Positions 4,301 through 39,376 of a stretch of DNA of 39,376 bases are shown here, one piece after another (position 1 is the stretch's first letter; each line of letters begins with the position of its first letter). The stretch lies in the NCBI RefSeq assembly GCF_000143415.4, contig NW_003314371.1, forward strand, positions 47,833 through 87,208, read 5' to 3'. The DNA comes from Selaginella moellendorffii (taxonomy: Eukaryota > Plantae > Lycopodiophyta). The position numbers and the translations under genes were made by a program. The notes under the pieces were generated by a model. The model searched no databases and was not told the DNA's origin. It saw only the letters and a program-made list of their open reading frames with translations.

Positions 4301-4430
4301 CATTATATAAAAGGATTGTTCCTTTTCTTTTTTACAATTTAGGACTTTGGGACAACATTTTGAAACACCATAACCCTACTTGGGTGGCACTACTTTGTGT
4401 GCCACATCCACCACTTGAGAAATATAGTTT
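1360..4430 (-). mobile_element. Old, diverged inverted partial copy of the non-autonomous LTR element at 9879-17501 (part of 5' LTR plus internal region)
   Basis: Reverse complement matches ~11000-14190 colinearly. 1401-1440 matches 14111-14150, and ~3790-3860 matches the LTR end and PBS remnant at 11570-11645. Heavily C>T/G>A decayed. Confidence 0.85.
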
Positions 4431-7901: not shown

Positions 7902-8086
7902 TTTCATTCGGCGATTGCTTCCTAGATTCTAGTGATAAGTCAATTTTTTAACAGTACTTTAATTTCCCAAATGGTAGGATATATTTATTGAATAAATCCA
8001 CTATAAACATAGATTTGACATGTTCTTTCCAAGGACACAATCATTCAATACTTTAGATATTAAAATATGTGTAATTGATTGTGAGA

Positions 8087-8416
8087 TGTTGAAATGAATG
8101 GGGTTATAAGCAAGAGGTGTTGATTAATCACGAGTTGTAGCGTTGATAACTTGTTCTCCCTCTCATCTTCCCTTCAAGAGAGTTTCATTTTTTTTGTGAC
8201 AAGTGAGAAAGAGGTGAGAGTGATAAATGAGATAAGTGAGAGAAAAAACTGCTTATGAACCAACCTCTCTAAGCTTGACTTTCTCTCACTTGTCACAAAA
8301 GAATGAAACTCTCTTGAAGGGAAGAGAACATGGAGATGAGAGGAGAACAAATTATCAACACTACAACTCTCGTGATTAATCAGCACCTCTCGCTCATAAC
8401 CCCATTCATTTCAACA
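8087..8416. repeat. Foldback / MITE-like long inverted repeat
   Basis: The arm at ~8087-8213 (tgttgaaatgaatggggttat...gtgacaagtgaga) is the imperfect reverse complement of ~8283-8416 (tctcacttgtcac...ataaccccattcatttcaaca). TG...CA ends; no clear TSD. Confidence 0.85.
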
Positions 8417-9878
8417 GTATTATTCCTTTCACAATCAATTATACAATTAATATGGGTGGCTCTTTAAGATTTTCATATATCTCTAGATTCTTAACAGTTA
8501 TATATTTTGTTAAAATAATTAACTCATCCTTTGTAAGGACATAGCTAATTAAAGTTCACAATATAGAAGAATATCTTTATTCTTTCTTCTAAGTTTCTCC
8601 TTAAATTTTTTCTAAATGCTTGAGCAAGGAGAAGATATAAGAGAATTTAGTTCGATCAAAAGCCTCCAATTTTTTAATTTAAGAGTGTTATTGGAAAGGG
8701 CTTCCTTTGCAAAAGATTCAAGCTAAAGCCAAGATCAGTTAGTTTGGAGAATATATATCACAATAAGGGTAAGCAAATAGAGAAATCCATTATTCTCGGT
8801 AGTGTTGTGGGAAAGAATGGGATTTAGTGGGATCTTGATAGATGTATAAGTTAGGAGGTTCTAATTGTAGAATCTTCGAAGTGAGGAGAGGAGAAGATAT
8901 CAATTTCATAGCCAATTGCATAAGGAGTGAAGGATGAAGTTGTTATTCTCTCTAGCAATGAAAATAAAGAAGATGAGTTTTTGGACTTCCAAATAAGGAG
9001 GTGCATTCTTTCTAAATTGGTTTTTGATACAATAAATAAGGCATTTTGGCAATCTTAATCATTATGGCTGAAATTGAAGGAGTTTGAGTACATGAAAGGT
9101 GAGGAGCTTTTGTCTTCCTATAATGGAAATATATACTTCAAATTTCCACTAGCCAGTTCATCAAACAAGAAGAAGGGCATGGAGACACATCTTGATCCAC
9201 ATAATTAGTGTAGAGTAAAGATGACCAATTTATCCCATTTTGACAGATCCATGTCTATAGTCCATTGTGGTGGACAACTTGAGTGTATCATTGAGAAATA
9301 CATTTCTAATCATGTATAGTGCACGTGGTTTTTACCCTTTACCCTATGGTGATTTACCATAAAATAACCATGAAGCAAAATGTAAACCCTTCATATGCCA
9401 TATGTCGCATGCCACATGTCCTAAGGACAGTGGTGTGGAACCCAAGTTTTAGGGCATTAGGCCATTGAATGAGAACGGAGCCAAACTCCTAAACATGGAG
9501 CCAAAGAGCAAAAAAACTGGAGCATGGAGTGACTCCCAAGTGTTTAGCTCAAGAAACAAAAGGACAGGAGTACGGAGTGACTTGGAATAGTCCTATAGCA
9601 TTTAACATCCCAATGCTAGGACCAACACGCAAAATGGAGCCAAATGGAGTTTGACGCTATTTCAGCATCTGGGGGCTTAACACAAGGATATATGTACTCC
9701 ACCAATTGGTATGGTGTGAAATTTGGGTTTAGACCTAAGCCAAACGCAGAACAAGGACAAGCACATAAACAGGAGCTAGGCTATGCCTCAGGTTAGTTAA
9801 CCATACCCAACCTACCCACTATCCCTACTATATATTTGGAACCCCCCACAGCCATCTGTAAGGAACCAACTCTCTGAG

Positions 9879-10498
9879 TGTGAGACACAAAATCCCTAGG
9901 CCCCAAAGTGGAGCCGAAAAGGGTGCCACGTGGTAGTGGCTGAAGCGAGAGCCAAACGAGCGTAACACGTTTGGACCAAAAGCTCCGACTTGAAAAGTCA
10001 AGAGCGGGAGTGGAACTCCCAACGAAGTGCTCGAGGAACGAGCACGAAGCGAGCAAAAGGCGAGGCTCCAAAAAGGGACCCGAGTTGGAGTCTGAAGTGG
10101 AGTCCGAGATGGACCCGAGTTGGAGTCCGAAGTGGAGTCCGAGATGGACCCGAGTTGGAGTCCGAAGTGGAGTCCGAGATGGACCCGAGATGGAGTCCGA
10201 GATGGAGTCCGAAGTGGAGTCCGAGGTGGACCCGAGATGGACCCGAGTTGGAGTCCGAAGTGGAGTCCGAGATGGACCCGAGATGGAGTCCGAGATGGAG
10301 TCCGAGATGGAGTCCGAGATGGAGTCCGAGGTGGACCCGAGATGGACCCGAAATGGAGTCTGAGATGGAGTCCGAGATGGACCCGAGATGGAACCCGAGA
10401 TGGAGTCCGAGATGGACCCGAGATGGACCCGAGATGGAGTCTGAGATGGAGTCCGAGATGGAGTCCGAGATGGAGTCCGAAGTCGAGACCGAGACCGG

Positions 10499-10530
<32 letters not shown>

Positions 10531-11639
10531 TCGGGACCGAGACCGAGACCGAGGCCGAGGCCGAGACCGAGCCCGAGCCCGAGTCCGAGTCCGAATCCAA
10601 GTCCGAGTCCGAGTCTGAGTCCGAGTCCGAGTCCGGAGCCTGAGAGGGTGAAAGCCCAAAGCGTTCGTCTCCCAGACCCTGGGGGGTTTGGTGAGCTCCA
10701 AAAGTATAGTAGGGGGAGGACTGCAGTGGAGCCAGTTTGGCCAGGAAAGGCCAGTTTGGCCCAGGAAGGCCGGACCCAGTGTTGGGTGATGAGCTGCCCA
10801 CTGGGAAGTCCAAGACTAGAGTGAACACGGACCGACAAGCGGGGTAGCTTGGTGAAGTGTTCAAGAGCCGGCTCTAGTTCCCCCGGGAGATCGACTGGCC
10901 GATGCTCCCAGTCCAAGTGTGGGTGGCACTACCTACTTGGATACCAGGCGTGGCTCAACGGAACCTCGCTCTAAGCCCATGGCTAGAGCACCTAAAGGCG
11001 AAAGGTGGGGAGAGTACCCAGGTGGCTCGCGTAAGGCCACGGTGTTTCGAAATGGTGTCCCAAAGTCCCAGACTGTGGAAAGGAAGAGGGGTAGCCCTCT
11101 GGTGGGGTAGCCAAGGACACAGTCACACAGTGAGGAAGTCCTCGAGGATAGTGGGACTTAGTGGTCGAGCCGGTGGGCCTTGATCCAGTGGCAGTGTTGG
11201 CGAACACAGCCAAGGACAAAAAGGGACTTGGTGGAGACCGGAACAGAGATATTGGGGAAGGCTATTCCCCATGTCTGTAGGCATCCTAAGGATGTTAAGG
11301 AGTGGATCTGGGATGATCCCTCATGGACGAATGACCCAGTCTTTGAGAGACGGGATTGGAATGCAGGTGGTGTTGGACCACCAGTGTGACCAAGGTAATT
11401 GGGCATGGCCTTAGCGTAACGGGCCGATACGTCGGTGGTACCTTGGGGTGTCGATCATGGGATCGGACACGTGGAGCACTTGGACCAAGTGCTAAGGTTG
11501 AGTGGCATGGATGCCATTCTCGGGGCTAGCAAGCCCCAAGTCCTGAGTTGGACTTATGGAGGTTGTGAATGAGACTCCTCCAAGTGGTCAGAGGTGTGGT
11601 TAAGTGACTAAAGTAGAATGGAAAAATTAGTCGCTTACA
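9879..11639 (+). repeat. 5' LTR (1761 bp) with internal 11/12-bp (ccgagatggac/ccgagatggagt) and 6-bp (ccgaga/ccgagt) tandem arrays
   Basis: tgtgagacac...gtcgcttaca; near-identical to 15741-17501 (about 9 transition differences seen by eye). Confidence 0.95.
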
Positions 11640-11642
11640 ATT

Positions 11643-11654
11643 TGGTATCGGAGC
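11643..11654 (+). promoter_or_regulatory. Primer binding site, tRNA-iMet type (one mismatch)
   Basis: tggtatcggagc, 3 nt after the LTR end; canonical sequence is tggtatcagagc. Confidence 0.85.
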
Positions 11655-11749
11655 TGTTCCTTAGTCCGACTTTTATTGGTGCTCAAGTATATCACCACTA
11701 GTGTTGGCATCGGAAGGTCCGAGGAGTGGGCCTATCCTTGAGGAGTAGC

Positions 11750-13810
11750 AAGTCGGGAAGACATGGCTCTCCATTACAGTTCATGTGTGAACTTGTAGAC
11801 GAGGTGGTGGATAGAAAAGGGCCAATAATGGAACGACTTTGGGATCTTGGGAACAGTATATGGTTTTCCTCAAAGAGTTGAGGATGTGATCCAGATGAGC
11901 GTTTGACTTAGCAAACTGGCTAATGTAGTTGTGGTAAACAACTACAGTTGGGATCACGGGAAAGGTAAAGACTCCAAAGCAATAAAGGAGTCATAAGATT
12001 TTCCTCATATAGTTGAGGTTGGTGCTCATGAATGTGAGACCAGAAGTAATGACCGTGGGAGGTCAAATACGGAAAAGGACTCAAGTCCTTGAAAAGGTAG
12101 CCGGGGCTACCTCTAATAAATGCTGGAACAACCCAAGGAGTTGGGGGTGTATTAAGTGGATGAGTTGGTGTTCTCATCACATGGACAAGTAGTCCTAAGG
12201 GGCAAAGGTTGCCCCCAGAGAACAAAATCAAGTGTCGGAGTAACACTTGTGAAAATAGTCCTTTTGAGTAGGACAGGAATGCAAGAAGTGTATTCCAGTG
12301 AGCTAGTGCCTCACAAGTAGGACCTTACGGGTCTGTGGATTAACCAAGTCCAAAACTGCTGGATGACTCAAGTAGAGTCAACGGATGGTCCTAAAAGGAC
12401 TGATGGAAGCATTTGGACTGAGGTGTGTTGTACCCCACAAAGGATGGGGGGGGATCATAGGATCCAAGGATGAGAATAGAGGGTATCTCATCGATGGCAA
12501 AATGTGCCATGCTAAAGTTATGGGAAAGGTGTTCCCAGAAGAAAACAACTTTGACATAAAGTTGTATGTGACCTCTATGGTGCAGTGCTAACGGATGGTT
12601 GGCATGAGAAAGAGCGGTGTTGGTCTTGGCAAAGACTTAGACACGAAGGGGAAATGTCATAGAGGTAGGCTCGTGGAGCCGATGGTGTGAAAACACCAAA
12701 TGTGCCAAGGTGTGGTACCTTGAGGCTATGTTGGTGGGTTCATGAGAACCCCTTGCCAAAGGAATCCCAATGGAAATGGGAATAGCATAGCCTAAGCTGC
12801 AGAGCATGTAGTTGGAGTGTGGTGACCCAGATAATGATGGAAGTGTGAAAGCACCAAGCAATGAGTTGTAGAACTTGACAACTATGAGGCAACTAAGCAA
12901 GAGGTGCAAAATAACTGGTTAAACGGGTAGAAGGTAGCTACCCAAGACTTCTTAATAGCATAGGGAAGTTGGATATACCCTTACGGGGGATAAGTTGCTT
13001 GTGTTGCGATATAGTAAGTCAATGTCATAAAAGGAAATACTCATTGTCAAGAAAGCCATCATTGGGACACCCGAACACTCTAGAACACCAGAAGGTGGTG
13101 TTTGATGTCGCGAGGGCAATGGATAAAGCCCAAGGGACTAAGTCCCTAGCGAATGATGGATAGAAGGTGCTATCCAAATGTCCAAGGTTGCGGAGACAGA
13201 AGAGGACTGTCTACCCGAGTTGGACAAAGCCAAAAATGGAATTTTGGCAAGGCTAGTGATGGGCATGCAAAGGCCCATAAGCAACAATGTAATCCCAGTG
13301 TGTGGGATTATAAGGTGAGCATACCCGGATTGAGGAACCACTCCCTAGGCTATTGGGTAGGTTCATCCCTAAGAATACTTGCTAAAGCATGATAGAAAGT
13401 GCAAAGCTATCCTCCTGGTTTGGAGGAGAATGACCAAAGGAAAGGTGTGAAGCCAAAAAGCAAGAAGTAAGGGGATAGAACCGAACCGTAGGAATCAAAG
13501 GGCATAACCAAGGTTGGTTATGCCAGCTGGGAGTGGAGAATCAAGTGGGGGCTCGAGGGTGTTGCTGCTAGCAATCGTGATGCCATGGAGAGTCTAAAAT
13601 ATGGAATTGTCCATGTTAGACTATGTGGCATTTGGAAGGCTTGCAAAAAGGGAGGCCTTAGCAAGCTGAGGGACAGAGTTCCTTCAAGGTTCCCAAAGGC
13701 GATTCTAGGTAGCTTAGTACCTAGAAAGGCCAAGTGTAAATGGTTCATGGAACGCGCGAAATCAGAGTGGCGTAGCAGAAGCGTGGTCTTGAAGCTTGCC
13801 ATGAGGCAAG
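11750..13810 (-). pseudogene. Decayed Gypsy pol (RT-RNaseH-INT) in antisense to the enclosing LTR element
   Basis: Minus-strand relic motifs in pol order: KLPRIAFGNLEG (PLPRI..L.G, ~13700), LVMPFD (LVMPFG, ~13500), LAKIPFLALSN (L..APVLALPD, ~13240), SRSIIGPF (RYxGPF, ~11820). Confidence 0.6.
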
Positions 13811-15551
13811 GCTATCAAGGTTAGGGAAGTAGTTCCCGAGTGTTCAAAGAGAGGGCTTTGAACGAAAGTCGATGGTCAAGGACTTTCACGCTTATGCAGG
13901 AACCATGTTACAGTGGTCGGAGGACTTGCCAAGCGAGATTGGCACGTCGGGGGAACAAATACCCTAGTTGAAGGTGATAACTTCAAAAAGGGTGGGCCAT
14001 GGGGCCGAGCATGGAGGAGTCCATGCATGATCGCAGACATGTCAAGTGAGAGGACTTGGCAGTGTGGAGGAACTAGGTTCCTAAACTGTGATCTGTAGCG
14101 CGCTTTAAAAATAAGTTGGTGCACCGGCGTGGGGAGTCACGCCAGGCATCTTGTGTGATGCCGTCCGTAGATGCATATACGGAGGTTGGGTTCGAGTCCC
14201 GACCCTCTAGTGCTTGAGTTCGAGTCCCAAATCACTAGGGCGTGGTGATGGTTTGGAATATGAGGACACTCATATTTCGGTGGTCATGGACTCTCAGTGG
14301 GGAGACTGGTTTGGGCACACCGCCAAGCGAGGGATGCCTCGGAGTCGTGATGCACGGTTAGATTGCTTAGAGTGAAAGCTCGGCATATCTAACTTGAACG
14401 CTTTGGTGCAAGTGGCACCAAGGTCGTGGTGAGTGAGATGGGGACACCTAATCTCAGTTGCTATGAACCCTTGGCCGTAAGGGCTAGCTTGGGTGCACCG
14501 CCAAGTGTGGGGGATGCCCCCGGGGTTATAGTCAACAACTTGGAGGTCTAGAAGACCAAGTACCTATTGGCAACTCTGTTAAGGTGCCAAGGTGAGATCA
14601 CTAGGTGATCTTATGGCCAGATAAGGACAAGATCCTTGGTTGGCTAAGGAATGAAGTTCCTGGTTCAAAATATTGAAATTGAACTGTTTAAGGTGGTGTG
14701 GCTTGGTCGTGATGACCAAGTGGGAAGAGCACCTAAGGGAAATAAACTATGTCCGTGCGATGGCATAGTGAGTCTGAGGAAAGTAGTCTCTATAAAAGAC
14801 CCATAGGAGGGTCACGAAGTTGGGCCGTGGATAGAGCCCATAGCAGAAGATGCTAAAGAGACGTACTAGGGGTGAACATCCTCCGGACTTGGCAAAGAAG
14901 AGTCTTTGCTATGGAACCAAAACAATACCTCAAGGAGGGAGGTAGAGATTCGATGTTGCTTGGTGCAACAATCAACGGATAGGAGCAAAAGATGAGTGGC
15001 CAAGATAGGGCCGTGGAATCCCTTGGAAGGAATCCAAGTGACAAAGTTAGGCGAGGAACACTAATGTGTTGGACGCTAACAAGTTGCGGGAAAGGAAGTG
15101 TGTTTCCAGGGAGGGATTCCGAAATGCTCCGATTTGGCGAAAGTGGAAGCTCCAAGGGAGGGAGCGGTAAGGTAGCCAAATGATAGGGCCATGAACAGCC
15201 CTAGCACAAAAGTATGATAACTGGAACTTTGGCACGATATAGAAGAGAGGATGATGGTGCCCTTGAGTAGAGAACTTCCTAGGATGGGAAGTGGAGTTGC
15301 ACAAAAGGTGCAAGGCAAGGTGTCGGAGACACCTAGGAAATTGACTCCAAGAAGTCAAAATTCAAAGTTCCAAAGTGCAAAGGTTATATCGGTGGAACTT
15401 GAGACTACTTGAGAAGGAGTAGTGGGATTGACTTAAAGAAGGGTCTTTAAGAGGTTTAGTGAGAACTAAACCAATAAAAGGAGAGAACCACTATATGTGG
15501 TCCAATCAGTCTCTAAGTTGGAGAGACTACCCTCCTTAGAGGATATGCAAA

Positions 15552-15637
15552 AGGCATGGTGAGCCTTCAATGTCCAACCATTGACGAATATGGAGAAGGC
15601 ATGGTGAGCCTTCAATGTCACACCATTGACAAATATT
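15552..15637 (+). repeat. ~45-bp tandem duplication upstream of the PPT
   Basis: aggcatggtgagccttcaatgtc..accattgac.aatat occurs twice in tandem. Confidence 0.8.
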
Positions 15638-15726
15638 GGCTACGCGCCAAGGATGGAAATGGTAACACATGCGGGTGTTACTTTATAAAATGGTTCACCG
15701 TTCGATGAGGACATCGAACTTCGTCT

Positions 15727-15740
15727 ATGGGTGGTGGAGT
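15727..15740 (+). promoter_or_regulatory. Polypurine tract
   Basis: atgggtggtggagt immediately before the 3' LTR. Confidence 0.7.
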
Positions 15741-17501
15741 TGTGAGACACAAAATCCCTAGGCCCCAAAGTGGAGCCGAAAAGGGTGCCACGTGGTAGTG
15801 GCTGAAGCGAGAGCCAAACGAGCGTAACACGTTTGGACCAAAAGCTCCGACTTGAAAAGTCAAGAGCGGGAGTGGAACTCCCAACGAAGTGCTCGAGGAA
15901 CGAGCACGAAGCGAGCAAAAGGCGAGGCTCCAAAAAGGGACCCGAGTTGGAGTCCGAAGTGGAGTCCGAGATGGACCCGAGTTGGAGTCCGAAGTGGAGT
16001 CCGAGATGGACCCGAGTTGGAGTCCGAAGTGGAGTCCGAGATGGACCCGAGATGGAGTCCGAGATGGAGTCCGAAGTGGAGTCCGAGGTGGACCCGAGAT
16101 GGACCCGAGTTGGAGTCCGAAGTGGAGTCCGAGATGGACCCGAGATGGAGTCCGAGATGGAGTCCGAGATGGAGTCCGAGATGGAGTCCGAGGTGGACCC
16201 GAGATGGACCCGAAATGGAGTCTGAGATGGAGTCCGAGATGGACCCGAGATGGAACCCGAGATGGAGTCCGAGATGGACCCGAGATGGACCCGAGATGGA
16301 GTCCGAGATGGAGTCCGAGATGGAGTCCGAGATGGAGTCCGAAGTCGAGACCGAGACCGGGACCGAGACTGAGACCGAGACCGAGACCGAGATCGGGACC
16401 GAGACCGAGACCGAGGCCGAGGCCGAGACCGAGCCCGAGCCCGAGTCCGAGTCCGAATCCGAGTCCGAGTCCGAGTCCGAGTCCGAGTCCGAGTCCGGAG
16501 CCTGAGAGGGTGAAAGCCCAAAGCGTTCGTCTCCCAGACCCTAGGGGGTTTGGTGAGCTCCAAAAGTATAGTAGGGGGAGGACTGCAGTGGAGCCAGTTT
16601 GGCCAGGAAAGGCTAGTTTGGCCCAGGAAGGCCGGACCCAGTGTTGGGTGATGAGCTGCCCACTGGGAAGTCCAAGACTAGAGTGAACACGGACCGACAA
16701 GCGGGGTAGCTTGGTGAAGTGTTCAAGAGCCGGCTCTAGTTCCCCCGGGAGATCGACTGGCCGATGCTCCCAGTCCAAGTGTGGGTGGCACTACCTACTT
16801 GGATACCAGGCGTGGCTCAACGGAACCTCGCTCTAAGCCCATGGCTAGAGCACCTAAAGGCGAAAGGTGGGGAGAGTACCCAGGTGGCTCGCGTAAGGCC
16901 ACGGTGTTCCGAAATGGTGTCCCAAAGTCCCAGACTGTGGAAAGGAAGAGGGGTAGCCCTCTGGTGGGGTAGCCAAGGACACAGTCACACAGTGAGGAAG
17001 TCCTCGAGGATAGTGGGACTTAGTGGTCGAGCCGGTGGGCCTTGATCCAGTGGCAGTGTTGGCGAACACAGCCAAGGACAAAAAGGGACTTGGTGGAGAC
17101 CGGAACAGAGATATTGGGGAAGGCTATTCCCCATGTCTGTAGGCATCCTAAGGATGTTAAGGAGTGGATCTGGGATGATCCCTCATGGACGAATGACCCA
17201 GTCTTTGAGAGACGGGATTGGAATGCAGGTGGTGTTGGACCACCAGTGTGACCAAGGTAATTGGGCATGGCCTTAGCGTAACGGGCCGATACGTCGGTGG
17301 TACCTTGGGGTGTCGATCATGGGATCGGACACGTGGAGCACTTGGACCAAGTGCTAAGGTTGAGTGGCATGGATGCCATTCTCGGGGCTAGCAAGCCCCA
17401 AGTCCTGAGTTGGACTTATGGAGGTTGTGAATGAGACTCCTCCAAGTGGTCGGAGGTGTGGTTAAGTGACTAAAGTAGAATGGAAAAATTAGTCGCTTAC
17501 A
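15741..17501 (+). repeat. 3' LTR (1761 bp)
   Basis: Direct repeat of 9879-11639, followed by TSD CTGAG. Confidence 0.95.
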
Positions 17502-17515
17502 CTGAGGTGTCAAAG

Positions 17516-17615
17516 NNNNNNNNNNNNNNNNNNNNNNNNNNNNNNNNNNNNNNNNNNNNNNNNNNNNNNNNNNNNNNNNNNNNNNNNNNNNNNNNNNNNN
17601 NNNNNNNNNNNNNNN
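17516..17615. other. Assembly gap (100 N)
   Basis: Run of N. Confidence 1.
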
Positions 17616-19511: not shown

Positions 19512-20374
19512 TCAGACTGTTATTTTTTGCCTCCAACGCCTATACAATAATCTTGGAATTTCATCACTCTCCACACTATCAGGATTTAAACCCAATAGTA
19601 ATGCCATCTCTTCTCTAATACGTCCACGCTCATGTTCAGTGGTCGAAGAACCCATCCGGTTGAGCAGATTATGGAGATGCGGATAGTGCTTGGCTAGACA
19701 ATATACATGCCATAAATGATGACTGGTGTCTGTCCGATCAAATGGCTTCTGATATACCGTTCCATCTGCCATTTGGTTGATTTCTGCAGCCACCTCCTGG
19801 ACTGGCCGGTTCTCTATCACCATCGCTTCAAGCCGTTTTGCAAGGTCCCCCAGAACATACGGTTTCTTCTCCCTAGTTTCCATACTGCAAGAGATGGGGT
19901 GCACTGCATATGTGTGCGTGTTCACTGCAGTTTTAATCGGCGAGTCATCGATGATGAGGATTTCACTTGACCTAGCAGTCCGGTTCATCACTACAGCCTC
20001 TGGCTTGACGAAGATGGGCTTGCTACCCCTCACATGGACCATAGTCAAGCAATCCTCCTGCGTTAGGAGAAAGTCAAATGGTAATATTACTCGCGTCTGA
20101 TCGTGCATCATCTGTAGCAACGTTAATGCATTGTGGCGCATCATGGATGTCCAAACTCTCAATTGCAAATTGAACCCGGCCCTCTGTTTTAAGTGTCGCA
20201 TAGTCATTATTAGATCCCGCAGTTTCTCCCGTGTGATTAATGTGAATCTGTCTCTTTTGACCAACTTGCGACCGCAGGCTTTGGAGGGTGCAGTGACATT
20301 CGAGGACGAGCCATGCTCATGGGAGAAAAGGACACCGTTCAGATCAAAAACGATACAGTACTTTCGCCGTGACT
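19512..20374 (-). CDS. Last exon: FCP1/NIF-like HAD phosphatase domain
   Basis: HAD motifs IVFDLNGVL (I), VWTSM (II), IFVKP (III) and LIIDDSPIK (IV), plus LTQEDC. Confidence 0.8.
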
Positions 20375-21964
20375 CTGAAATGAAATGCGTTAGCATAAAA
20401 AATGGTACAAGTCAATTTTACCATCTACAATATTAGCGAATGGTGCTCCCGATGGTCGTTCAGAGGGTTTTGGTCGAGGAAACGTGAAGGGCGGAAATAC
20501 TCTCCTCTGCAATGTGGGGTCAATCGCATCCGATGGCGTGTGGGCACATGCCATTTCAGCTGTAGACTCTGGTACAACTGGCTCAACAGTGGCATGGGGT
20601 GGTTCCGATGGCGTGTGATCACACGCCATTTCAGCTGGTGCCTCCGTTGGCAAAGTGGACATGACCGAACAGGCAGCAGGGGCGGTGTAGGGAGGTTCTA
20701 ACGGCGCGTAGTCAGACGATTGGGCACACGTTGGAAATGAGGATACGACCGGCTCGGCGGCTGGGGCGGCCTCATGCGGGTCCAATGGCGCCTGGTCACC
20801 GTCAGTTGGATACGTGGACAAGATTGACTCAGTGGTATGGGCAGCATCAAGTGGAGCGTGGTCAGCTTGCTTGGCGTTGATATGGATAGTAGCCTCCACC
20901 AGCTCTGATGACTCTTGCAGGCAAGTAGAGTCCACTGGCGGATCCATATGCATGTCCAAATATCTCCCTTCGATTGAGATGGTATCCTCCCGTGCTACTA
21001 AAAACAAACTCATTAGCACATTGAATCAACTATACTGTATTTACCATCAACTGCTATTGAGGAACTAGGACCGATATCACTTGGGCGCACTGCTGATTCT
21101 GAAGGATTGGACATACGTTTCGACCCTTGCTTGGCACTATCCTTCCTCGACACTAAAGGCTAGAGTTTGTATCTTAATTCAACTGAATAATCTCTACTTA
21201 CCATTTCTTCTGCGACCTACATGGACAATGTTAGAAATGGTAAAAGGTTAGGAATGGATGTACTATTATTTACCTGATGGTTTGTCTTGTATGACCTTCC
21301 TCCGCTGCTCTTTGGCCACCTCAGGCTGGCCATCATCGTCATCATCGTCATCGTCGTTATTGTGATCGTCACCATTGTGAGGACCATCCAAGTCCTCTTC
21401 GTCCTCCTCTTCTTCGTCCTCCTCTTCTTCGTCCTCCTCTTCTTTGTCCTCCTCTTCGTCCTTCTGCTCTTCCTGCTCATTATCTTTCTCTGGCTCCTCA
21501 TCCCCCTCTTGCATTTCTTCCATAGGCTGCTCAGGCTGGATTGCTTGTTTTTCCAGGACCATCTTGGAAAAATCATCTGGCCGAGTCTCCATCTCAAAAT
21601 ACAAGACATCCATAGCCTGTTTTAGTGCGTGACCTAGGACCGTATCCTCACCCGACTGTCTTAACATGGTTTCTGCACGTTCTTGCACCCTTCGAAGACG
21701 ACGAGATGAGAAAAACGTGGCCCTGACTTGAAAAGCATCCCTCATCCATTGTACCTCTCCATTGAGATTGGGGAAGGGGAGTCTGCCATAGGAATCTGAG
21801 TCAGAAGGTGGTGACTGGCTCCTTTCACTCAGCCCTTGATCTGCAATGAATGGCATGAGCACACACGCCATAACCGCGAGGCATTACCTATCATCTTTTC
21901 GTTGCCCTTCTTCCTTTTCGAATCAAACGCCTCTGATCCCGACGACTGTCCAACGTGCTTTCGC

Positions 21965-22064
21965 NNNNNNNNNNNNNNNNNNNNNNNNNNNNNNNNNNNN
22001 NNNNNNNNNNNNNNNNNNNNNNNNNNNNNNNNNNNNNNNNNNNNNNNNNNNNNNNNNNNNNNNN
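21965..22064. other. Assembly gap (100 N)
   Basis: Run of N within the cargo gene. Confidence 1.
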
Positions 22065-23792: not shown

Positions 23793-24940
23793 TGTAAGCC
23801 ACAAATTTTTCCTTTCCAATTTGCTAGCTTACCTCGTCTATCCGTCCAACATTGCCTTGGCTTTTGCTAAGTTCCCTTGCCAAGGTTCTCGCCTATGGTA
23901 CCAGCTCCTACTTGGTTTCAGCTACTCACTGCACGAGCAATGGAGCGTTAGCCATCCTTCCACGGATTCCCAAATCACTCCCAATCCCCCTCCCCGGGTT
24001 AGACTGGACTTAAGGTTCGGCTACACTCCCCGCAAGCACAAGCAGCCAAGCACACCAAGCTTCCAGGTTCCTAACATCCCTTGGTACCACAAGACTTGAT
24101 CATGGGACCCTCTAAATCCCAAGTCTTGAGTGCAACACTTGCTTCGGGACGCCGGGGCGAAACACCGTGGCCTAACGGCCCGGCATGGGTACCTCTCGCC
24201 CCCCACTTCCATCCCGAAGGAAGGCCCAAGCCCCTAGGAAGGGCGAGGACCAATGAGCCGCATGGTACTCAAGTGGGGCACCACTCCACATGAGCCGGGA
24301 GCACCGCAATCGGTTTCCCTTTCGGGAGTGGGAGCTGCTCTTGAGCACTTCCTTGGATGGCCCCTCCGGCACCAACCAAGTCCATGCTCACTCCCACCCA
24401 AGGCCCCTCGGTCCCAGTCCCAACCTCAAGTCAGTTTGGGAGCCCCACTGGAGAGTCCCTTCTAAACTGGTTCCTGGACCTCACTATCCCTACTATACTT
24501 TTGGAACCCCCTGCAGCCCCCCCCCCCTGGGGGACGCACGCTTTGGGCTTTCACCCCTTGACCCGTATTAGTATTTGGACTTAGTCTCTGGCTCGATCTC
24601 GGATCCGATTTCGGATCCGACTTCGGATTCGGTCTCGGACTCGATCGCGGACTCGATCTCGGACCCGATCTCGGGCCCGACCTCGGACTCGACTTCGGAC
24701 TCGGTCTCGGACCCGATTTCGGATCTCGGACTCCGTCTCGAACTCGGTCTCGAACTCGGACTCGAACTCGGTCCCCGAGTCGGTCTTGGACTCGATTCCG
24801 GACTCTATCTCGAACTCGGTCCTAGAGTCGGTCTTGGACTCGATCTTTGACTTGGTCCCATCCGATGAACTCTTTGTCATTTTGGTCATGCTTTCGGGGT
24901 TCCCTTAGCCTACGACACCTCGGCGAGTTGGTTCCTTACA
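23793..24940 (-). mobile_element. Solo LTR (1148 bp) of the Gypsy family at 33568, inserted in a cargo-gene exon
   Basis: TG...CA ends; TSD CCAGG (23788-23792, 24941-24945); near-identical reverse complement of 33568-34715; no PBS or internal region adjacent. Confidence 0.95.
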
Positions 24941-29281: not shown

Positions 29282-32200
29282 ATGGCCTTCAGGGTTGGGG
29301 AAAAGGTTTACATTTTGAATGGTGGGAAGAGAGTTGCAAAAGGGACCCTTGTGTCTATGGATCGGAACTTTGTTATACACTGTGAAAGGCTTGGGGAATG
29401 CAATGCTGCTGTATCAGTAGAGACTGTCTTCGATGGGAATGTGGTCGCTATTGAACGAGGAGAGATGGTCGTCGGGGTAAATGTTGTTGTTGCCTTGAAA
29501 AATCTTCAGAAGAAAGCAGATGTTGGGGACAGCGCAAGTGCGACGCATGTTCCCTCTGTGGATCTTAAGAACCGTGCTACATGGATTCAGGCAAAAGTGT
29601 TTCTAAACAACCCCGAGGGGGAGGTGGTAGCTGAGGGCTTAGCCACAGTTGTCGATCCAAGAGATGCGGTTGCTAATCAAGAATTGGGCTGGGATGATAT
29701 TGGAGTTGCGATTTTAGAGGTTGTTGACACAGAAGAAAACAGTCTGACTATTGGAAGCATTGTGCGGTGGAAATTGAGGCACTTAGTGTTTGAGAATGTG
29801 AAGGATTCACAATCAAACACCACTACAACTGATGACAGAACATCTCTTCATGGGAAAAGAAAGTACACCTTCCTAAAGCGCAGCCAAAGGGATCTGAGCA
29901 ACAAACCGAAAAGGCAGAAAATGGCGATGGAGGTTCGAATGGTCTCGACAGTTGCTTGTTGCAAGAGGAGGTGCTGTCAACATGCTGATTGGGATGCTAT
30001 TGAAGAGGAGAGAGCAAGATACAAGACATTGTCCTGGAAGGTAGCTCGCAATTTTGTGTATGAGGCATTACGGTCATCTGTTGATGCTTCAGAACATCAG
30101 GTGGGGGGCATGGTCTTCCAAAGGGGTTTGGTCTGCATGAAGGCATGGAGAATCATTTATGGAGTCCCTCGAACCACATTCTACAGAATCAAAACTAAGT
30201 TCGAGGAACAAAGGGTTCAACAGGCAGTCCATGGGAACGACGGTACTCACAAAACCAGGGGTCATGTTGTATATGGAGAGGCAATCTTCAAGAGGTTTGT
30301 CGAGACATGTAGCGAGCAGCAACCACATGGAAGATGGAACCCGCCTCTTGGAAGATGGAACACGAGACACCCAACGAGTTCTCCCTTCCATGTATACCAA
30401 GGGGGCCATATTGGAAGATGTGAATCGGGAACTCTAGAGTAATGGCTACAGGAAGCTGAGCCAATCTAGATTTAGTAGATTGTGGAGCAACAGGTTCAGG
30501 GATGTGAGTATAGGAAAGTACTCCAGCTTTTCAAAGTGTGACGAGTGCACTGCTATCAAAATGGCTTTGTCGAAGAATTCTTGCAGCGCTCAAGAGCGAG
30601 AGACGTTGGTTAGAAGGCGGCTCGACCACAACATCGAGCAGAGAAGCTGCAGGACTGCATATTATCATAACAGGATTCTCTCCATGGAGAGACCTGACTC
30701 TTACCTCTGCATCATCCACGACAAAATGGACCAGAAAAAGACATGCTTACCTCGACTCAATCCTGCCCCCAAGGCAATCTCTTCATCCATGCAGCTGCCT
30801 GTGTCTCTGTTTGGCATAATCGCTCATGGGCATGGTGCCCAGAACTATGGGAACTTCTTTGTACCTCTATGGGGTGGCGGGGGTGCAAACATGATGATTG
30901 CGTCCCTAGCAAAACACTTAAGGTCTCTGCAAAGTGCGCAGACTGAGCTGAATGGCCAACCCTTGCATAAAGCCCTTGTCGATCGAACCCCATACAGGGT
31001 TCAGCTGGAGGAGGAGCAAAGGCTTGCAGTATCGTGTGGGGCCCCATGCCATCCCAGTGAATATGTTGGCCGTCAGATTGTAGGGTTATCACGTGAGGCC
31101 TCATGCCATTCCGACGAGGCTGGTCGCCCGGTGAATGCACAGCCTCATCCAAACGAAGCAGAATCTCAAGGAAGTTCTTGCGGCCGATGTGGCCTTCCAC
31201 CCCATCTTCTGCTCCAAACAGACAATGCTGGCAGTGAGAACAAAAACATGTACGTCTTCGCGTACTTGGCGATGCTTGTTGCCAAAGGCATATTTGAAAC
31301 GGTTACACTTGGCTTTCTCATGGTTGGGCACACTCATGAAGACGTCGATGCCATGTTCAGTCACCTGGCAGAGTCCCTCCGGCGATCCAATGTCCTCACC
31401 CTCCCACAACTCTACGATGAATTCCAAAATTGCATCAAAGGCACTGTTGAAGCTGCACTTCTGACAGAGGTTCCAGACTTTAAGGGGTTTGTAAGAGGCT
31501 ACATCAGGGATGGATCCGAAACGCTGATTGGCCACTCCAAGCCTCTTCAGTTTCATTTCAGCATGTGTGACGGTGCTCCAGTGATGAGGTACAAGATGAG
31601 AGAATGGGACACAGTGTGGCTGCCAGTGGACGGCATTGAACTCTTCAAGAGAGATCCCATAACTGGGGAACCTATGATTCCTCAGGGTTCCCCACGGCCG
31701 ATGCACCCGGATGGACTCAAAGACTAGGAAAGTATAGTGGCCGGGATTAGACAGCATATTGCCTTCTGGAAGAGGGGGTTGGTGTTTGGTGGAGAATCCT
31801 ATTTTCAGAGGTGCAAGCCTTTGCTCGAATACTGGGAGAAGATTATATCTGCTATCCAAAATGGGCCAGTTGTATATGAAGAATTGGAAGAGTCCTTTTG
31901 GCCAGAACCCAGAGCACCAGATAGTAGCGGAACAATGTCCTCTGGAAATGCAGTGACAGATAACGATGTTGAGGATCACTATTGTGGGCCGAGGAACAAG
32001 AAGCCGGATTCAGCATTCAATCCAGTACAGGTCTGCAAAGGAATGGTCGTGCTTGTCAGACCCAGTAATAAAAAACAAATGATATGGGTGGGGCGCTGCA
32101 TCACTGATGCAGAGGAGGACGCGGAAACTAACTCCTTCAATGTAACTGTGGAGTGGTTCAAGCCAAGTTCCGGATATACGAAGGATTGCCTAGAAAAGAG

Positions 32201-33567: not shown

Positions 33568-34715
33568 TGTAAGGAACCAACTCGCCGAGGTGTCGTAGGC
33601 TAAGGGAACCCCGAAAGCATGACCAAAATGACAAAGAGTTCATCGGATGGGACCAAGTCAAAGATCGAGTCCAAGACCGACTCTAGGACCGAGTTCGAGA
33701 TAGAGTCCGGAATCGAGTCCAAGACCGACTCGGGGACCGAGTTCGAGTCCGAGTTCGAGACCGAGTTCGAGACGGAGTCCGAGATCCGAAATCGGGTCCG
33801 AGACCGAGTCCGAAGTCGAGTCCGAGGTCGGGCCCGAGATCGGGTCCGAGATCGAGTCCGCGATCGAGTCCGAGACCGAATCCGAAATCGGATCCGAAAT
33901 CGGATCCGAGATCGAGCCAGAGACTAAGTCCAAATACTAATACGGGTCAAGGGGTGAAAGCCCAAAGCGTGCGTCCCCCAGGGGGGGGGGGCTGCAGGGG
34001 GTTCCAAAAGTATAGTAGGGATAGTGAGGTCCAGGAACCAGTTTAGAAGGGACTCTCCAGTGGGGCTCCCAAACTGACTTGAGGTTGGGACTGGGACCGA
34101 GGGGCCTTGGGTGGGAGTGAGCATGGACTTGGTTGGTGCCGGAGGGGCCATCCAAGGAAGTGCTCAAGAGCAGCTCCCACTCCCGAAAGGGAAACCGATT
34201 GCGGTGCTCCCGGCTCATGTGGAGTGGTGCCCCACTTGAGTACCATGCGGCTCATTGGTCCTCGCCCTTCCTAGGGGCTTGGGCCTTCCTTCGGGATGGA
34301 AGTGGGGGGCGAGAGGTACCCATGCCGGGCCGTTAGGCCACGGTGTTTCGCCCCGGCGTCCCGAAGCAAGTGTTGCACTCAAGACTTGGGATTTAGAGGG
34401 TCCCATGATCAAGTCTTGTGGTACCAAGGGATGTTAGGAACCTGGAAGCTTGGTGTGCTTGGCTGCTTGTGCTTGCGGGGAGTGTAGCCGAACCTTAAGT
34501 CCAGTCTAACCCGGGGAGGGGGATTGGGAGTGATTTGGGAATCCGTGGAAGGATGGCTAACGCTCCATTGCTCGTGCAGTGAGTAGCTGAAACCAAGTAG
34601 GAGCTGGTACCATAGGCGAGAACCTTGGCAAGGGAACTTAGCAAAAGCCAAGGCAATGTTGGACGGATAGACGAGGTAAGCTAGCAAATTGGAAAGGAAA
34701 AATTTGTGGCTTACA
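33568..34715 (+). repeat. 5' LTR (1148 bp)
   Basis: tgtaaggaacc...gtggcttaca; matches the solo LTR at 23793-24940. Confidence 0.95.
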
Positions 34716-34718
34716 ATT

Positions 34719-34730
34719 TGGTATCAGAGC
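34719..34730 (+). promoter_or_regulatory. Primer binding site, tRNA-iMet
   Basis: tggtatcagagc. Confidence 0.95.
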
Positions 34731-34774
34731 CTTTATCTCAGTTCTAGCGAAGGATAGAGGCGGATTGCTGGGAG

Positions 34775-37700
34775 ATGGCAAGGGCAGGGCGTAAGCGAAC
34801 CCAGGCGGAGACGGAACCTCCGCCGGAGCTGGAGCCTCCGGTTGAACAAGAGGCTATGGATGAGGAATCCTTGCATGAGGAGGACTCCAGTGAGGAAACT
34901 TCCAAACAGGAGTCCGGTGGCGAGGTTCGGTCGTCCAAGGCTCGATTGGACGTGCTAGAAGGACAGTTGGCACAGACCAATGCCCTGCTGGAGACTCTCG
35001 TACGCAAGTTAAAGTGTGACGAGAAGCGGAAGAAAAAGCGAAAGACTGCGGATGCTGGCAGCGCAGAAGGTGCGGACCCTTCGGCAGGGACTGAGGCAAA
35101 ACCAGACAAGGTCGAACAGACCGAAGTGGAATCAGTCCCTCAGGCGGTTCCCAAGTACAAACCAAAGCCCCCACCGGTGTTCAAGGGAGTGAACGACTAT
35201 AAGGTTGTGGAGGATTGGTTTTACGATATGGAGGACTACTTCCGAGCGTTGCGGTTACCGAGCTCGGAGAAGGTCCCATGTGCAAAACCATACTTGGCAG
35301 ATAATGCCAAGTCTTGGTGGAGAACAACGGAGGCCAACGAAGGACCGGTGGCCACCTGGGACATGATGAAGGCGAGGATCCGCGCGACATACGTTCCTCC
35401 GAATGCCACTCTGCATCTGAGAGATGAGCTGAGTAGGCTGAAGCAGACTGGAACCATCCAGGAATATGTGAATGGGTTCATGGCAAAGAGGATACTTGTC
35501 ACGGACATGGGGGATATGGATGCGTTCCATGCCTTTATATCAGGTTTGCAAACCTGGGCTCGCGGTGAGGTGATGCGCTGGAACCCGACCAACTACAAGG
35601 AAGCGTTGGATGCGGCCATCAAGGTGCATTTCAACGATAACCTGCGAAAGGGGAACACGACGGGGTCGGGATCCACGTTTCACAAAGGGGCCAAACCGAG
35701 GGGAACATATAGCAAGGGGAAATTCAAGAAGAGTTTCTCTAAGAATGAGTCCTCGGGGTTCCGGAAAGGCAAATCCGGTGGCCAGCGAGCGAGTACGTGG
35801 GGAAGTCAAGCGAAAAGAGACAAACCCACGGATAAGAAGGTCAAGTCGTATAGCAGCGTGGGCAACAACGTATGCTACAACTGCGGCGAAGCGGGACACT
35901 TCTCAAGGGAATGTCCCTACCCGAAGAAGGCCAGAGCCAATATGGCCATCAAGTCGGGTGAAGTCCAAACTGAGGTATGTGATCCAGTCCCTAACTCAAA
36001 GTTACTCATTACACGAGCAACTTTGGTAGAGAGTCGTTCGCGACATCTACTAGCCCTCCGAGGGAAGCTCGGAGGTAGCTTTGTTAAGATCCTTATTGAC
36101 ACGGGTGCTTCGGATAATTTTGTGGCTGCAGACATAGTCCGGCAAGCCGGACTAACGGTGCAGCGGCTAGGCGAACCAAGGACTATAGAATTTGTTCAAG
36201 GTAGCCAAAGCACCGATGAGGTACTTCGACAAGCGAGAGTCGAAGTGGGGACATGGAAAGTGGATATGGATTTCACCGTCTTGGACATGGCGGGATTTGA
36301 CGTGATCTTCGGAATGGATTGGTTTAATCGGTTCGTGGTAGCCCTGCATGGACAAGGTAGGAACCTTGTGGTATTGGCGAATGCCCAAGGAAGAAGATCT
36401 AGGGTGGAGGCCCAGGATCTAAAGGTAGGGCAAAGCAAGGCCAAAGAGTCATGCTTAAACCTGGTGTCCACGAGAGGACAACTCACTAAAGGAACTAAGG
36501 CAGCCTTTTTGTGCTTACTCTCGGTGAAGAGTGACAAAAAGACAAGAACGGAAGAAGTACCTTTAGTGATCCAGCAGGTGCTGGACCAATTCCAGGATAC
36601 CATGCCAGAGGAGCTACCGGCGGGGTTGCCCCCCGCACGACCGATAGAACATAAGATTGAGCTGGTCGAGGGTGCTGAGGCGGTGGTTCGTCCACCCTAT
36701 CGATTGAACGAAAAAGAACTCAAGGAGCTCAAGAGCCAACTAGAGGAGTTGGTGGACAAAGGGTATGTTAGGTTGAGCAAGTCGCCGTATGGGGCGCCGG
36801 TGCTATTTGTGAAAAAGAAAGATGGATCTATGCGCATGTGCATAGACTACCGGTTGCTCAACAAGTATACCAAGAAGAACAAGTACCCTTTGCCAAGGAT
36901 CGAGGACCTGTTCGATAGGTTGGGAAAGGCAAAATACTTCTCGAGGATTGACCTAAGGTCAGGATACTACCAGATCAGGGTAGCTGAGGAAGATGTCGAG
37001 AAGACAACCTGTCGAACGAGGTATGGGAGCTTTGAGTTTTTGGTGATGCCCTTTGGGCTGTGCAATGCGCCGGCAACGTTTTCGGCGTTGATGAACCACA
37101 TCTTTGTACCCTATCTGGATCGCTTCGTGGTCGTCTATATTGACGACATCTTGATCTATAGCGAGACGCTAGAGGAGCATGCCGAACACTTGGCGAAGGT
37201 GTTTGAGAAACTAAGGGAACACAAACTGTATGCTAAAGAGAGCAAATGTGACTTTGCTCAACAAGAGGTAAAGTTTCTCGGGCATGTGGTGGGCCAGGAC
37301 GGGCTCAAGGTGGACCCGGAGAAGGTCCAAGCGATCCAGGAATGGGAACGACCATCGAATGTACATGAGTTGAGGGCGTTCCTGGGGCTATGCAACTACT
37401 ATCGAAAGTTTATCAGACACTATTCGAGAGTAGCCCTGCCCTTAACGGACCAAACAGGAAAAGGGAAGATGGTATGGACAGCGGAATGCGAGGCGGCATT
37501 CGTCCACCTCAAAGGGAAGTTGAGGAAGGCTCCGGTGTTGGCATTACCAGACTTTGGTAAGGACTTTGAGGTAGACACGGATGCTTCGGACTTTGCGTTG
37601 GGCGCAGTTTTGAAGCAAGACAACCATCCAGTAGCGTTCTTCTCGAAGAAGCTGGACAAGGCTCAACGGAAGTGGCCTGCCCACGAGAAGGAATTGTTTG

Positions 37701-39376
37701 CGGTGGTCAAGGCACTCAAGGAGTGGCGACACTACCTTGGGAGACACTTCAAAGTTTACACGGACAATGTGGCAACGAAACACTTCTTGTCACAGCCCGA
37801 CCTAAGGGGAAAACAAGGTCGGTGGGCCAATGCTTTGGCCGAGTTTGATTGCGAGATCCTGTACAAGCCTGGGAAGAGCAACATCGTGGCAGATGCGCTA
37901 AGTCGAAAAGCGAGCTTGAAGTTGGCGATATCTAGCGCGACAGCAACCTTTTGGGACGATGTGCGGACCGCATACGAGAGTGATGGTCTAGCACAAGAAG
38001 TGTTGCTGAGGAATCTGGAGGCGCGGGAAGCTCACCAGAGAGGTGAGCTGCCAACGGAAGAGAAAACGGGCTATGCGGAACGCAACGGACTCATATATTA
38101 CAAGCAAACGAGGGTGTATGTTCCAGAAGGGGAACTAAGGAAAGTAGCCTTGGAAGAGTGTCATGACGGACCTCTTGCGGGACACGGCGGAGTGCCCAAG
38201 ACGATGGGCTTACTCAAAAGGAAGTATCACTGGCCGGATATGGCTAAGGACGTCCAAGACTATGTAAAGACATGTCCAACATGTCAGCAGGTCAAAGCCG
38301 TGACGAAGGCTAGTGGGGGCTTGTTGCAAAGCATCCCCATTCCAGATCGTCCGTGGAAATGTCTCACGATGGACTTCATCACGGGACTACCCCCAAGCGA
38401 GGGGTTCGATGCGATATTCGTGGTGGTGGACCGATTTTCAAAGATGGCACATTTCATACCCACCACAACGGATGTGGATGCGGAAGGTGTGGCGAAGCTG
38501 TTCTTCGAACAAGTGGTTCGAGTGCGGGGAAGGCCGGAAGAGATTATCTCAGATCGAGATAAGATCTTCACCAGTAGGTTCTGGAGGACACTCCTAGAAC
38601 AGTATCGCACCAAGTTGAAATTCAGCACGGCCTATCACCCACAGACAGGTAATGGGTATTGAGTCAAGATTGATGGCACTAACACTTCTTGACAGACGGA
38701 CAAACGGAAAGGGTGAATAGGCAGCTGGAGGATTATTTGCGATGCTATGTCTCGGGAGACCAGGCCGACTGGGTAAGTCATTTGGGACTTGCGGAAATGT
38801 GTTATAACAACTCACCACATTCGAGCATCGGGGTGAGTCCATGGGAAGTCATCAATGGGCGAGCTATTGAAGGTCCTGTGGAACTCGGCGTGGCCGAGTA
38901 TCATGGAGAGTTACCCGCAGTGGAGGCATTCACGGCGGAAAGACTCAACATTTGGAATCTAGTGAGGGATTCCTTGGAACGAGCTCAACAAAGGCAAACC
39001 AAGTACGCGAACCTAAAGCGCCGGGATGTAGAGTTCCAAGCTGGGGAGAAGGTGTGGCTGAACACCAAGAACCTTAGGCTACCAAGTGGGATCAGCCGAA
39101 AGTTGACCCAAAGGTAAAAATGCATGTATTCCTGTAAATGAATTGATCTTGAGTTCCTTAAGCAGGTTCGCGGGGCCTTACGAGATTGAGGCACGAATCG
39201 GTAAAGTGGCTTACCGACTCCGACTTCCTCGAGAGATGGGGAAGATGCACCCAGTGTTCCATGTGAACTTACTCAAGCCGTACTTTGAGGATCCGCTTCG
39301 CAAGGACCAAGTAAGACCTTTGCCTGAGGTTATCCAAGGGGAAGAGGAATACGAAGTCGAGGCCATCCTCAATGCG
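34775..39376 (+). CDS. Gag-Pol polyprotein, spliced: join(34775-38648, 38696-39113, 39166->39376)
   Basis: [14 protein letters not shown] knuckle, LIDTGAS protease, YIDD RT, DTDASD RNaseH, HHCC plus TMDF/SDRD integrase. Removing two GT-AG introns restores [12 protein letters not shown] and KLTQRFAGPY. Confidence 0.9.
38649..38695 (+). other. Predicted spliceosomal intron 1 in integrase (47 bp)
   Basis: ag|gtaatg...cactaac (branch site)...ttcttgacag|ac; contains an in-frame TGA. Confidence 0.85.
39114..39165 (+). other. Predicted spliceosomal intron 2 in integrase (52 bp)
   Basis: ag|gtaaaa...ccttaagcag|g; AT-rich; removal restores QRFAGPY. Confidence 0.85.

Follow-up and report, generated by a model that had tools for sequence, protein, structure and literature searches.

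A Ty3/Gypsy element with an interrupted integrase

The window, that is, the whole 39,376-nucleotide stretch of DNA analysed here, ends within an LTR retrotransposon on the plus strand, for which Pfam returned gag, zinc knuckle, protease, RT, RNase H and the integrase zinc finger and core, in this order. Judged by its domain order Gag-PR-RT-RH-IN, the element is a Ty3/Gypsy LTR retrotransposon. Further Ty3/Gypsy LTR traits found were TG..CA ends and a primer-binding site (PBS) behind the LTR, with a target duplication known from a solo LTR only. The 5' LTR (33568..34715, plus strand; 1148 bp, TGT...ACA) carries a 12-nt-type tandem repeat and a G11 tract. Sequence comparison revealed a solo LTR of the same family on the minus strand (23793..24940), 8.6 kb from the element and 99.9% identical to its 5' LTR, with a 5-bp target duplication, CCAGG, indicating recent insertion. 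A TATA-like word at 34011 and a likely transcription start at ~34038-34041 (together 34008..34041, plus strand) are weakly hinted at by contig starts: contigs from two RNA-type runs, belonging to two studies, begin at 34038 and 34041, whereas DNA runs continue beyond these positions. The PBS, of the tRNA-Met type and 12 nt long, lies at 34719..34730 (plus strand).

The main open reading frame begins with the ATG at 34775 and extends over 3885 bp (1295 aa) to a TGA stop at 38660-38662. An earlier note on this DNA had described a frame of ~1290 codons whose unspliced reading stops ahead of the catalytic Glu codon at 38707, and this is what we found: the frame (34775..38662, plus strand; ORF and Pfam evidence) encodes Gag, PR, RT, RH and a partial IN and ends within the third of four introns, labelled A to D along the element. 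Between introns C and D lies an integrase exon (38696..39113, plus strand) that contains the catalytic Glu codon and is 44.6% identical to its best relative over 139 aa. The last visible exon (39166..39376, plus strand) matched the Pfam families SH3_Tf2-1 and Integrase_p58_C and gave no Chromo match before running off the window, which ends at the likely first residues of a chromodomain.

Family identity and relatives

The element is likely SM1-Galahad of Selaginella moellendorffii, a match made by features and not by alignment. According to the accessible text of its description (Novikov et al. 2012, PMC3350952), SM1-Galahad has a 3885-bp, 1295-aa ORF, LTRs of 1076/1146 bp with a G tract of 11-25 nt, and a tRNA-Met PBS described as 13 nt long; downstream of the main ORF follow two short ORFs of 316 and 309 bp, the last with a chromodomain. 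The window element has the same ORF length in bp and aa, an LTR of 1148 bp with G11, and a PBS of 12 nt against the 13 described. A candidate for the first of the two short ORFs, from the ATG at 38797 to a stop at 39115, measures 318 bp compared with 316 bp, and the other is cut by the window end. The same portions of the source report hundreds of copies, ~95% alike, among which no intact copy was identified, and give the family as a consensus of several copies with split frames (PMC3350952). Since the published sequence is a consensus, the split frames represent the family norm. The words 'intron' and 'splic' are absent from the main text of the description (PMC3350952), and the accessible parts of PMC2864245 and PMC7197481 hold nothing on introns of the family. 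Compared with SM1-Galahad as published, the breaks in the window element are shown here to be introns, and two further introns were found. A sister family in the same genome, SM2-Galahad, is described in the accessible text as having a single 1577-aa ORF and hundreds of copies (PMC3350952).

More distant relationships were assessed with a quick tree of 50 rows. The RT-RH region of the window element fell into a 22-row clade (SH-aLRT 99) together with environmental and seed-plant elements, the latter of which we take to be the Galadriel group. Most named members of this clade carry PF00385. On this tree, the element's RT-RH groups with chromodomain-bearing elements, as expected of a chromovirus. 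The search returned no close relatives, the best reaching 56% over the full RT-to-integrase region and 53% among representatives, and the inter-intron exon and Gag gave no matches at 1e-10 within the lengths searched. Viral contigs yielded no relatives, and metagenome contigs yielded two distant loci at 31-37%.

Among relatives with the integrase motif, 244 of 261 are continuous through it, and none of the eight that end within 40 residues does so at the stop of the window element; some of these relatives are gene models that could hide introns, and the nearest are ORF calls of ~1540 aa on short contigs. As the frames of relatives are continuous, introns C and D are most likely gains in this lineage.

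Two introns inside the integrase

Intron C (38649..38695, plus strand) is 47 nt long, has GT..AG ends and interrupts the integrase core in phase 1 ahead of the catalytic Glu. Intron D (39114..39165, plus strand) measures 52 nt, likewise with GT..AG ends, and lies in phase 2 within the SH3-like (GPY/F) region. Both insertions had been proposed as frame-breaking GT/AG sequences of exactly these lengths, and the CTAAC branch site claimed for the first was found 14 nt ahead of its acceptor; intron D offers only a weak branch-like word, TTGAT. GC content drops to 0.40 in C and 0.33 in D, compared with 0.52 in the flanking coding DNA, and GT..AG ends arose in 1.2% of 100,000 shuffles of each insert.

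That removal restores the frame, as had been predicted, is borne out at both junctions, which are in register with all 14 intron-less relatives examined when the frame is read with an X at each break. Skipping the 47 nt of C moreover yields the D-x35-E catalytic spacing, with the Glu codon at 38707. Frameshift recoding was ruled out as a source of the two breaks by the precise skipping of both inserts, and a sequencing or assembly artefact by DNA contigs of other runs, which hold the introns with variants of their own.

At their ends, both introns bear short repeats, of 5 nt in C and AG|GT in D, which would be expected if they had been inserted at a proto-splice site or with duplication of the target. 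Apart from chance matches of 11 nt, nothing resembling C or D was found in the rest of the window, and neither intron folds better than its shuffled versions. A hairpin-type mobile origin of the two introns is unsupported on both counts.

Two further introns upstream

The remaining introns had escaped the earlier note. Intron A (34676..34741, plus strand; 66 nt, GT..AG) comprises the last 40 nt of the LTR, a 3-nt spacer, the PBS and 11 nt more; a joint skipping 66 nt is present in run X15, and the intron is retained in an X17 contig. Its branch-like word, CTTAC, overlaps the LTR end, and a predicted hairpin pairs its donor with that end; on its own, this fold is weak (z -1.3 over 78 nt), with z -2.7 in a longer context of 181 nt. 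Intron B (35975..36131, plus strand; 157 nt, GT..AG), for which X15 holds a joint skipping 157 nt, is coding when retained and contains the protease DTG at 36098-36106. When B is removed, the frame ends one residue past codon 400, just beyond the zinc knuckle, giving a 401-aa Gag. All four introns have GT..AG ends, with branch words in A, B and D that are weaker than the CTAAC of C. Introns A to D are real and, by these ends and their precise skipping in RNA-type data, of the spliceosomal U2 type.

Two observations touch the surroundings of intron A. A hairpin just ahead of the PBS is predicted in three LTR ends of the window (34676-34714, 11601-11638 and 3790-3826) despite sequence changes in its stem, with GTAAG in the 5' arm of the autonomous element only and GTTAAG in the other two. 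At 34735-34736, most family DNA reads TC where the window copy reads AT, resulting in a purer pyrimidine run before acceptor A.

Spliced and retained forms in RNA-type data

Eight of 24 runs were compared with the window; RNA is on record only for X22-X24, and X15, X17 and X18 are RNA by guess. Contigs of X15 contained skips of 66, 157, 47 and 52 nt, each readable as GT..AG, one for each of the four introns. One 2500-nt X15 contig, starting at 36896, precisely skips both C and D, and a single sense raw read of the RNA run X22 skips the 47 nt of C; together, these records agree with the earlier claim that the two integrase insertions are true spliceosomal introns. The joints of A, B and D all come from X15 and from contigs only. 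Matching raw RNA reads numbered 60, 23 and 36 in X22-X24, from ~12% of each run, with almost none of those in X23 and X24 falling into the coding region, and among them one covered joint C and none joint A, B or D. For intron B, X15 holds the skipped form only; no coverage lies within the intron (a depth of 1.03 was observed, against 1.02 predicted for the uncovered case), which is consistent with RNA.

Two further studies bear on the same joints. In X18, contigs stop at 38643 and resume at 39164, positions that coincide with the X15 joints. Bin depths in this run exactly fit a 47-nt skip of C (2.62 and 2.05, predicted and observed), from which we infer the skip. Contigs of X17, from a third study, retain A and C. 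With A and C retained in X17 and four skips in X15, spliced and unspliced forms are both represented in RNA-type data. Taken over all RNA-type contigs outside X15, retained forms were seen for A, C and D. At ~2-6% divergence from the window, the X15 contigs derive from other copies and report on the family rather than on the window copy.

The records of X15, X17 and X18 and the raw reads include none that links A to C and D, and none with B kept and C and D removed, which would be the integrase message; in X15, C and D may be skipped from a gag message, within its 3' UTR.

X22 also contributed antisense and sense reads over the integrase exons (38666-39208), at a depth below 2-fold. In the three 2026 runs, most raw RNA reads fall on 34184-34540. 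They stem from a different locus, whose transcript contains no more of the LTR than this segment, and their loose ends are identical in all three runs.

Introns are kept in the DNA of a recently mobile family

In the DNA run X1 (88,229 contigs), intron bins reached depths of 1.16M, 0.98M and 1.00M, within the range of other internal bins (0.80-1.33M). An X4 contig with a depth of 51.7 spans D free of gaps, and an X4 loose end carries a diverged version of intron C in which the GT is kept. These depths, the X4 contig across D and the split frames of the published consensus support the expectation, raised before this analysis, that family DNA retains both integrase introns. Joints A to D were absent among the best-supported 15 of 189 X1 DNA joints, all 15 of which are at single-contig depth; rare intron-less copies may exist in family DNA.

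One-base indels occur inside C and D (38651 and 39116), and the variant list has none for the intervening exon. Of the coding variants listed, most are synonymous, with 22 of 26 among the 40 shown of 152 and 24 of 27 among the 40 shown of 1379, all of the counted ones lying upstream of C. Identity to relatives is 44.6% and 49-53% for the exons after C, compared with 44-54% for the integrase before C. From the LTR end, 39 contigs run into unlike flanks. These many flanks and the 99.9% identical solo LTR with its 5-bp duplication indicate that the family is large and recently mobile.

A proposed splicing-based division between message and genome

As read from the frames, a complete integrase, including the third catalytic residue and the C-terminal part, requires removal of C and D with B kept, and removal of B yields Gag alone, the protease active site being lost. 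Retroviral-type minus-strand synthesis is primed by a tRNA, and an RNA devoid of the PBS cannot begin it. With the PBS and the LTR end lying inside intron A, spliced RNA of this family is likely unprimable, and because the PBS intron likely makes it so, the integrase introns would survive reverse transcription. All four GT..AG introns are removed from family RNA and kept in family DNA, and we consider it probable, with some reservation, that they are kept owing to the PBS carried by intron A.

Three RNA classes would be involved. Unspliced genomic RNA would be the only one to carry a PBS, a fully spliced mRNA would encode Gag, and a gag-pol mRNA would have lost A, C and D. Provided that downstream splicing goes along with removal of A, only unspliced RNA would be copied, and downstream introns would not be purged. 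This could act as a ratchet, in that once A had split message from genome, later intron gains downstream would have been unpurgeable and could have become fixed, with no regulatory role of C and D required. The hairpin predicted at donor A could hold some transcripts unspliced. In its fullest form, the proposal is that an autonomous, high-copy LTR retrotransposon has turned into a multi-intron gene, in which splicing chooses between message and genome, all proteins come from unprimable spliced RNA, and the pol introns are locked in by an intron-gain ratchet, the whole possibly being switched by a donor-hiding hairpin; to this complete version we give an even chance. The splice-gated integrase suggested in the earlier note survives in part: complete integrase can be read from spliced RNA only, but the suggestion was incomplete, as introns A and B had been missed, the former of which offers a simpler reason for the survival of the integrase introns through reverse transcription.

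Other ways of keeping genome and message apart have to be weighed. The introns may be real and the replicated RNA separated by different means, either as a BARE-like unspliced pool (second promoter, uncapped RNA) or through selection at packaging or export, in which case C and D would form a regulated integrase gate, as the earlier note had proposed, and A would be a by-product. BARE1 indeed has a packaged unspliced pool next to a translated, partly spliced one, according to the accessible text of PMC3735527, and the retention of A and C in X17 alongside the skipping of all four introns in X15 fits all-or-none pools; a further point in favour is the weak branch word of intron D. Spliced X15 and unspliced X17 data, however, both start at ~34038-34041, a weak hint of one start, and PBS loss alone would suffice to exclude any RNA without A. 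We rate this alternative as rather unlikely.

Clearly less probable still is that the family has, in practice, no working integrase of its own and relies on that of the intron-less SM2-Galahad, the splicing of C and D being incidental and confined to the 3' UTR of the gag message. A donor of this kind is at hand in the same genome, where SM2-Galahad is described as having hundreds of copies and a single ORF of 1577 aa (PMC3350952), the RNA-type records contain no RNA with B retained and C and D removed, and the presence of a non-autonomous LTR element in the window makes it likely that mobilisation in trans occurs there. Yet the reading frame stays open in the exons after C, whose conservation is close to that of the integrase before C (44.6% and 49-53% versus 44-54%), both joints restore the exact register and the D-x35-E spacing, and the listed indels include some inside the introns (38651, 39116), where they are tolerated, and none in the intervening exon. 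Highly improbable, finally, is that the joined forms are active, intron-less master copies in DNA, the window copy stemming from a sub-lineage with insertions: run types were guessed and the DNA joints seen are the best 15 of 189, but a copy without A has no LTR end or PBS and a copy without B no protease, so that neither could be a master, joint C occurs in a raw RNA read, the published consensus has split frames in the accessible text (PMC3350952), and the top 15 DNA joints, at single-contig depth, include none of A to D.

Relation to known systems

Classically, retrotransposition is proven by showing that an intron disappears when the element passes through RNA. Introns in LTR elements have been considered exceptional: a 2005 paper stated, in its accessible part, that no intron upstream of gag had then been reported for any LTR element (PMC1142308), and the accessible text of a 2025 review describes plant LTR elements as generally without introns, with Ogre and EVADE as notable exceptions (PMC12786077). 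The closest parallel to intron B is found in the Ty1/Copia elements EVD and BARE1, in which, as far as the accessible texts go, removal of an intron at the protease/gag end creates an early stop and a Gag-only message (PMC5580714, PMC3735527). The window element differs in being Gypsy and not of Copia domain order. Unspliced RNA of EVD and BARE1 encodes the whole polyprotein according to the same portions of text, whereas that of the window element cannot make integrase. BARE, moreover, is described in the accessible sections as separating its pools by promoter and R region, and not by splicing out the PBS (PMC3735527). Short-Gag introns were not found conserved in Arabidopsis Gypsy elements in the parts of PMC5580714 available to us, and the Gypsy cases named in the available parts of PMC3735527 are Ogre, CRR and env splicing.

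Like the window element, Ogre is a Gypsy element whose full polyprotein needs splicing and whose genomic copies keep the intron, as stated in the accessible text of PMC6317226. There, Ogre has one intron between its Gag-PR and RT-RH-IN frames (PMC6317226), while PR and RT are continuous in the window element, with no joint at this position. Unlike Ogre, the window element has two introns inside the integrase, one of them beside the catalytic Glu, and one across the LTR end and PBS. The supplement files of PMC6317226 that were accessible contain no Selaginella text, although larger tables may be missing from them.

In foamy viruses, the major splice donor lies upstream of the PBS. Foamy Pol enzymes come from a spliced message and not from genomic RNA, a likeness to the window element that rests on the accessible part of PMC7828637. 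Foamy Pol is, by the same text, a separate protein obtained by removal of gag, whereas the Pol of the window element stays fused to Gag and its introns of 47-66 nt are non-coding inserts; a gag-removing joint of the foamy pol type is absent among the four joints listed in RNA-type data. Penelope-like elements also keep spliceosomal introns through RNA-based copying, as described in the accessible text of PMC4209133. They differ from the window element in being non-LTR, with a telomerase-like RT, no integrase and no tRNA priming.

A full-text literature search, conducted mostly at title and abstract level and covering few subscription journals and Repbase notes, returned no report of introns inside a Gypsy integrase, and within the same scope no RNA-shown PBS-spanning intron and no introns in SM1-Galahad. 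The family itself is known. For its four-intron design, in which integrase depends on splicing and one intron takes out the primer site, this search gave no published account, which is short of establishing that none exists.

A family described without an intact copy appears intact once splicing is allowed for, and annotation that calls elements dead from broken frames may miss live families in genomes with small introns. Removal of its own primer site by splicing would explain, in a way open to testing, how a retroelement tells its messages from its genome. With the intron-less sister in the same genome, nature also provides a comparison by which intron gain could be dated and explained.

Other features of the window

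A young non-autonomous LTR element lies at 9879-17501 (plus strand), with LTRs of 1761 bp that are 99.5% alike, a 5-bp duplication (CTGAG) and a Met-type PBS. Its 4.1-kb interior gave no tblastn match to the Gag-to-integrase frame. In the LTR repeat and at the LTR end, it is similar to the autonomous element, its likely partner in trans. An older, AT-shifted copy of the same non-autonomous element, ~71% alike, occupies 1373-4369 (minus strand). Assembly gaps of 100 N are located at 17516-17615 and 21965-22064, and an imperfect inverted repeat of ~380 bp, 73% self-complementary and MITE-like, at 8068-8445.

Between ~19100 and 33000, a cluster of divergent frames resembles a DNA transposon, inside which the solo LTR sits. 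The cluster includes a NIF/FCP1-like phosphatase frame (19512-20411, minus strand) and a DUF7869 frame (30438-31727, plus strand), and it contains many palindromic repeats of the GGCATG..CATGCC type. Introns of 47, 57 and 69 nt are predicted within it; the statement of the earlier note that the integrase introns match other introns of the window in size rests on prediction, namely on candidates of these three lengths at ORF borders, which make up three of 15 pattern hits.
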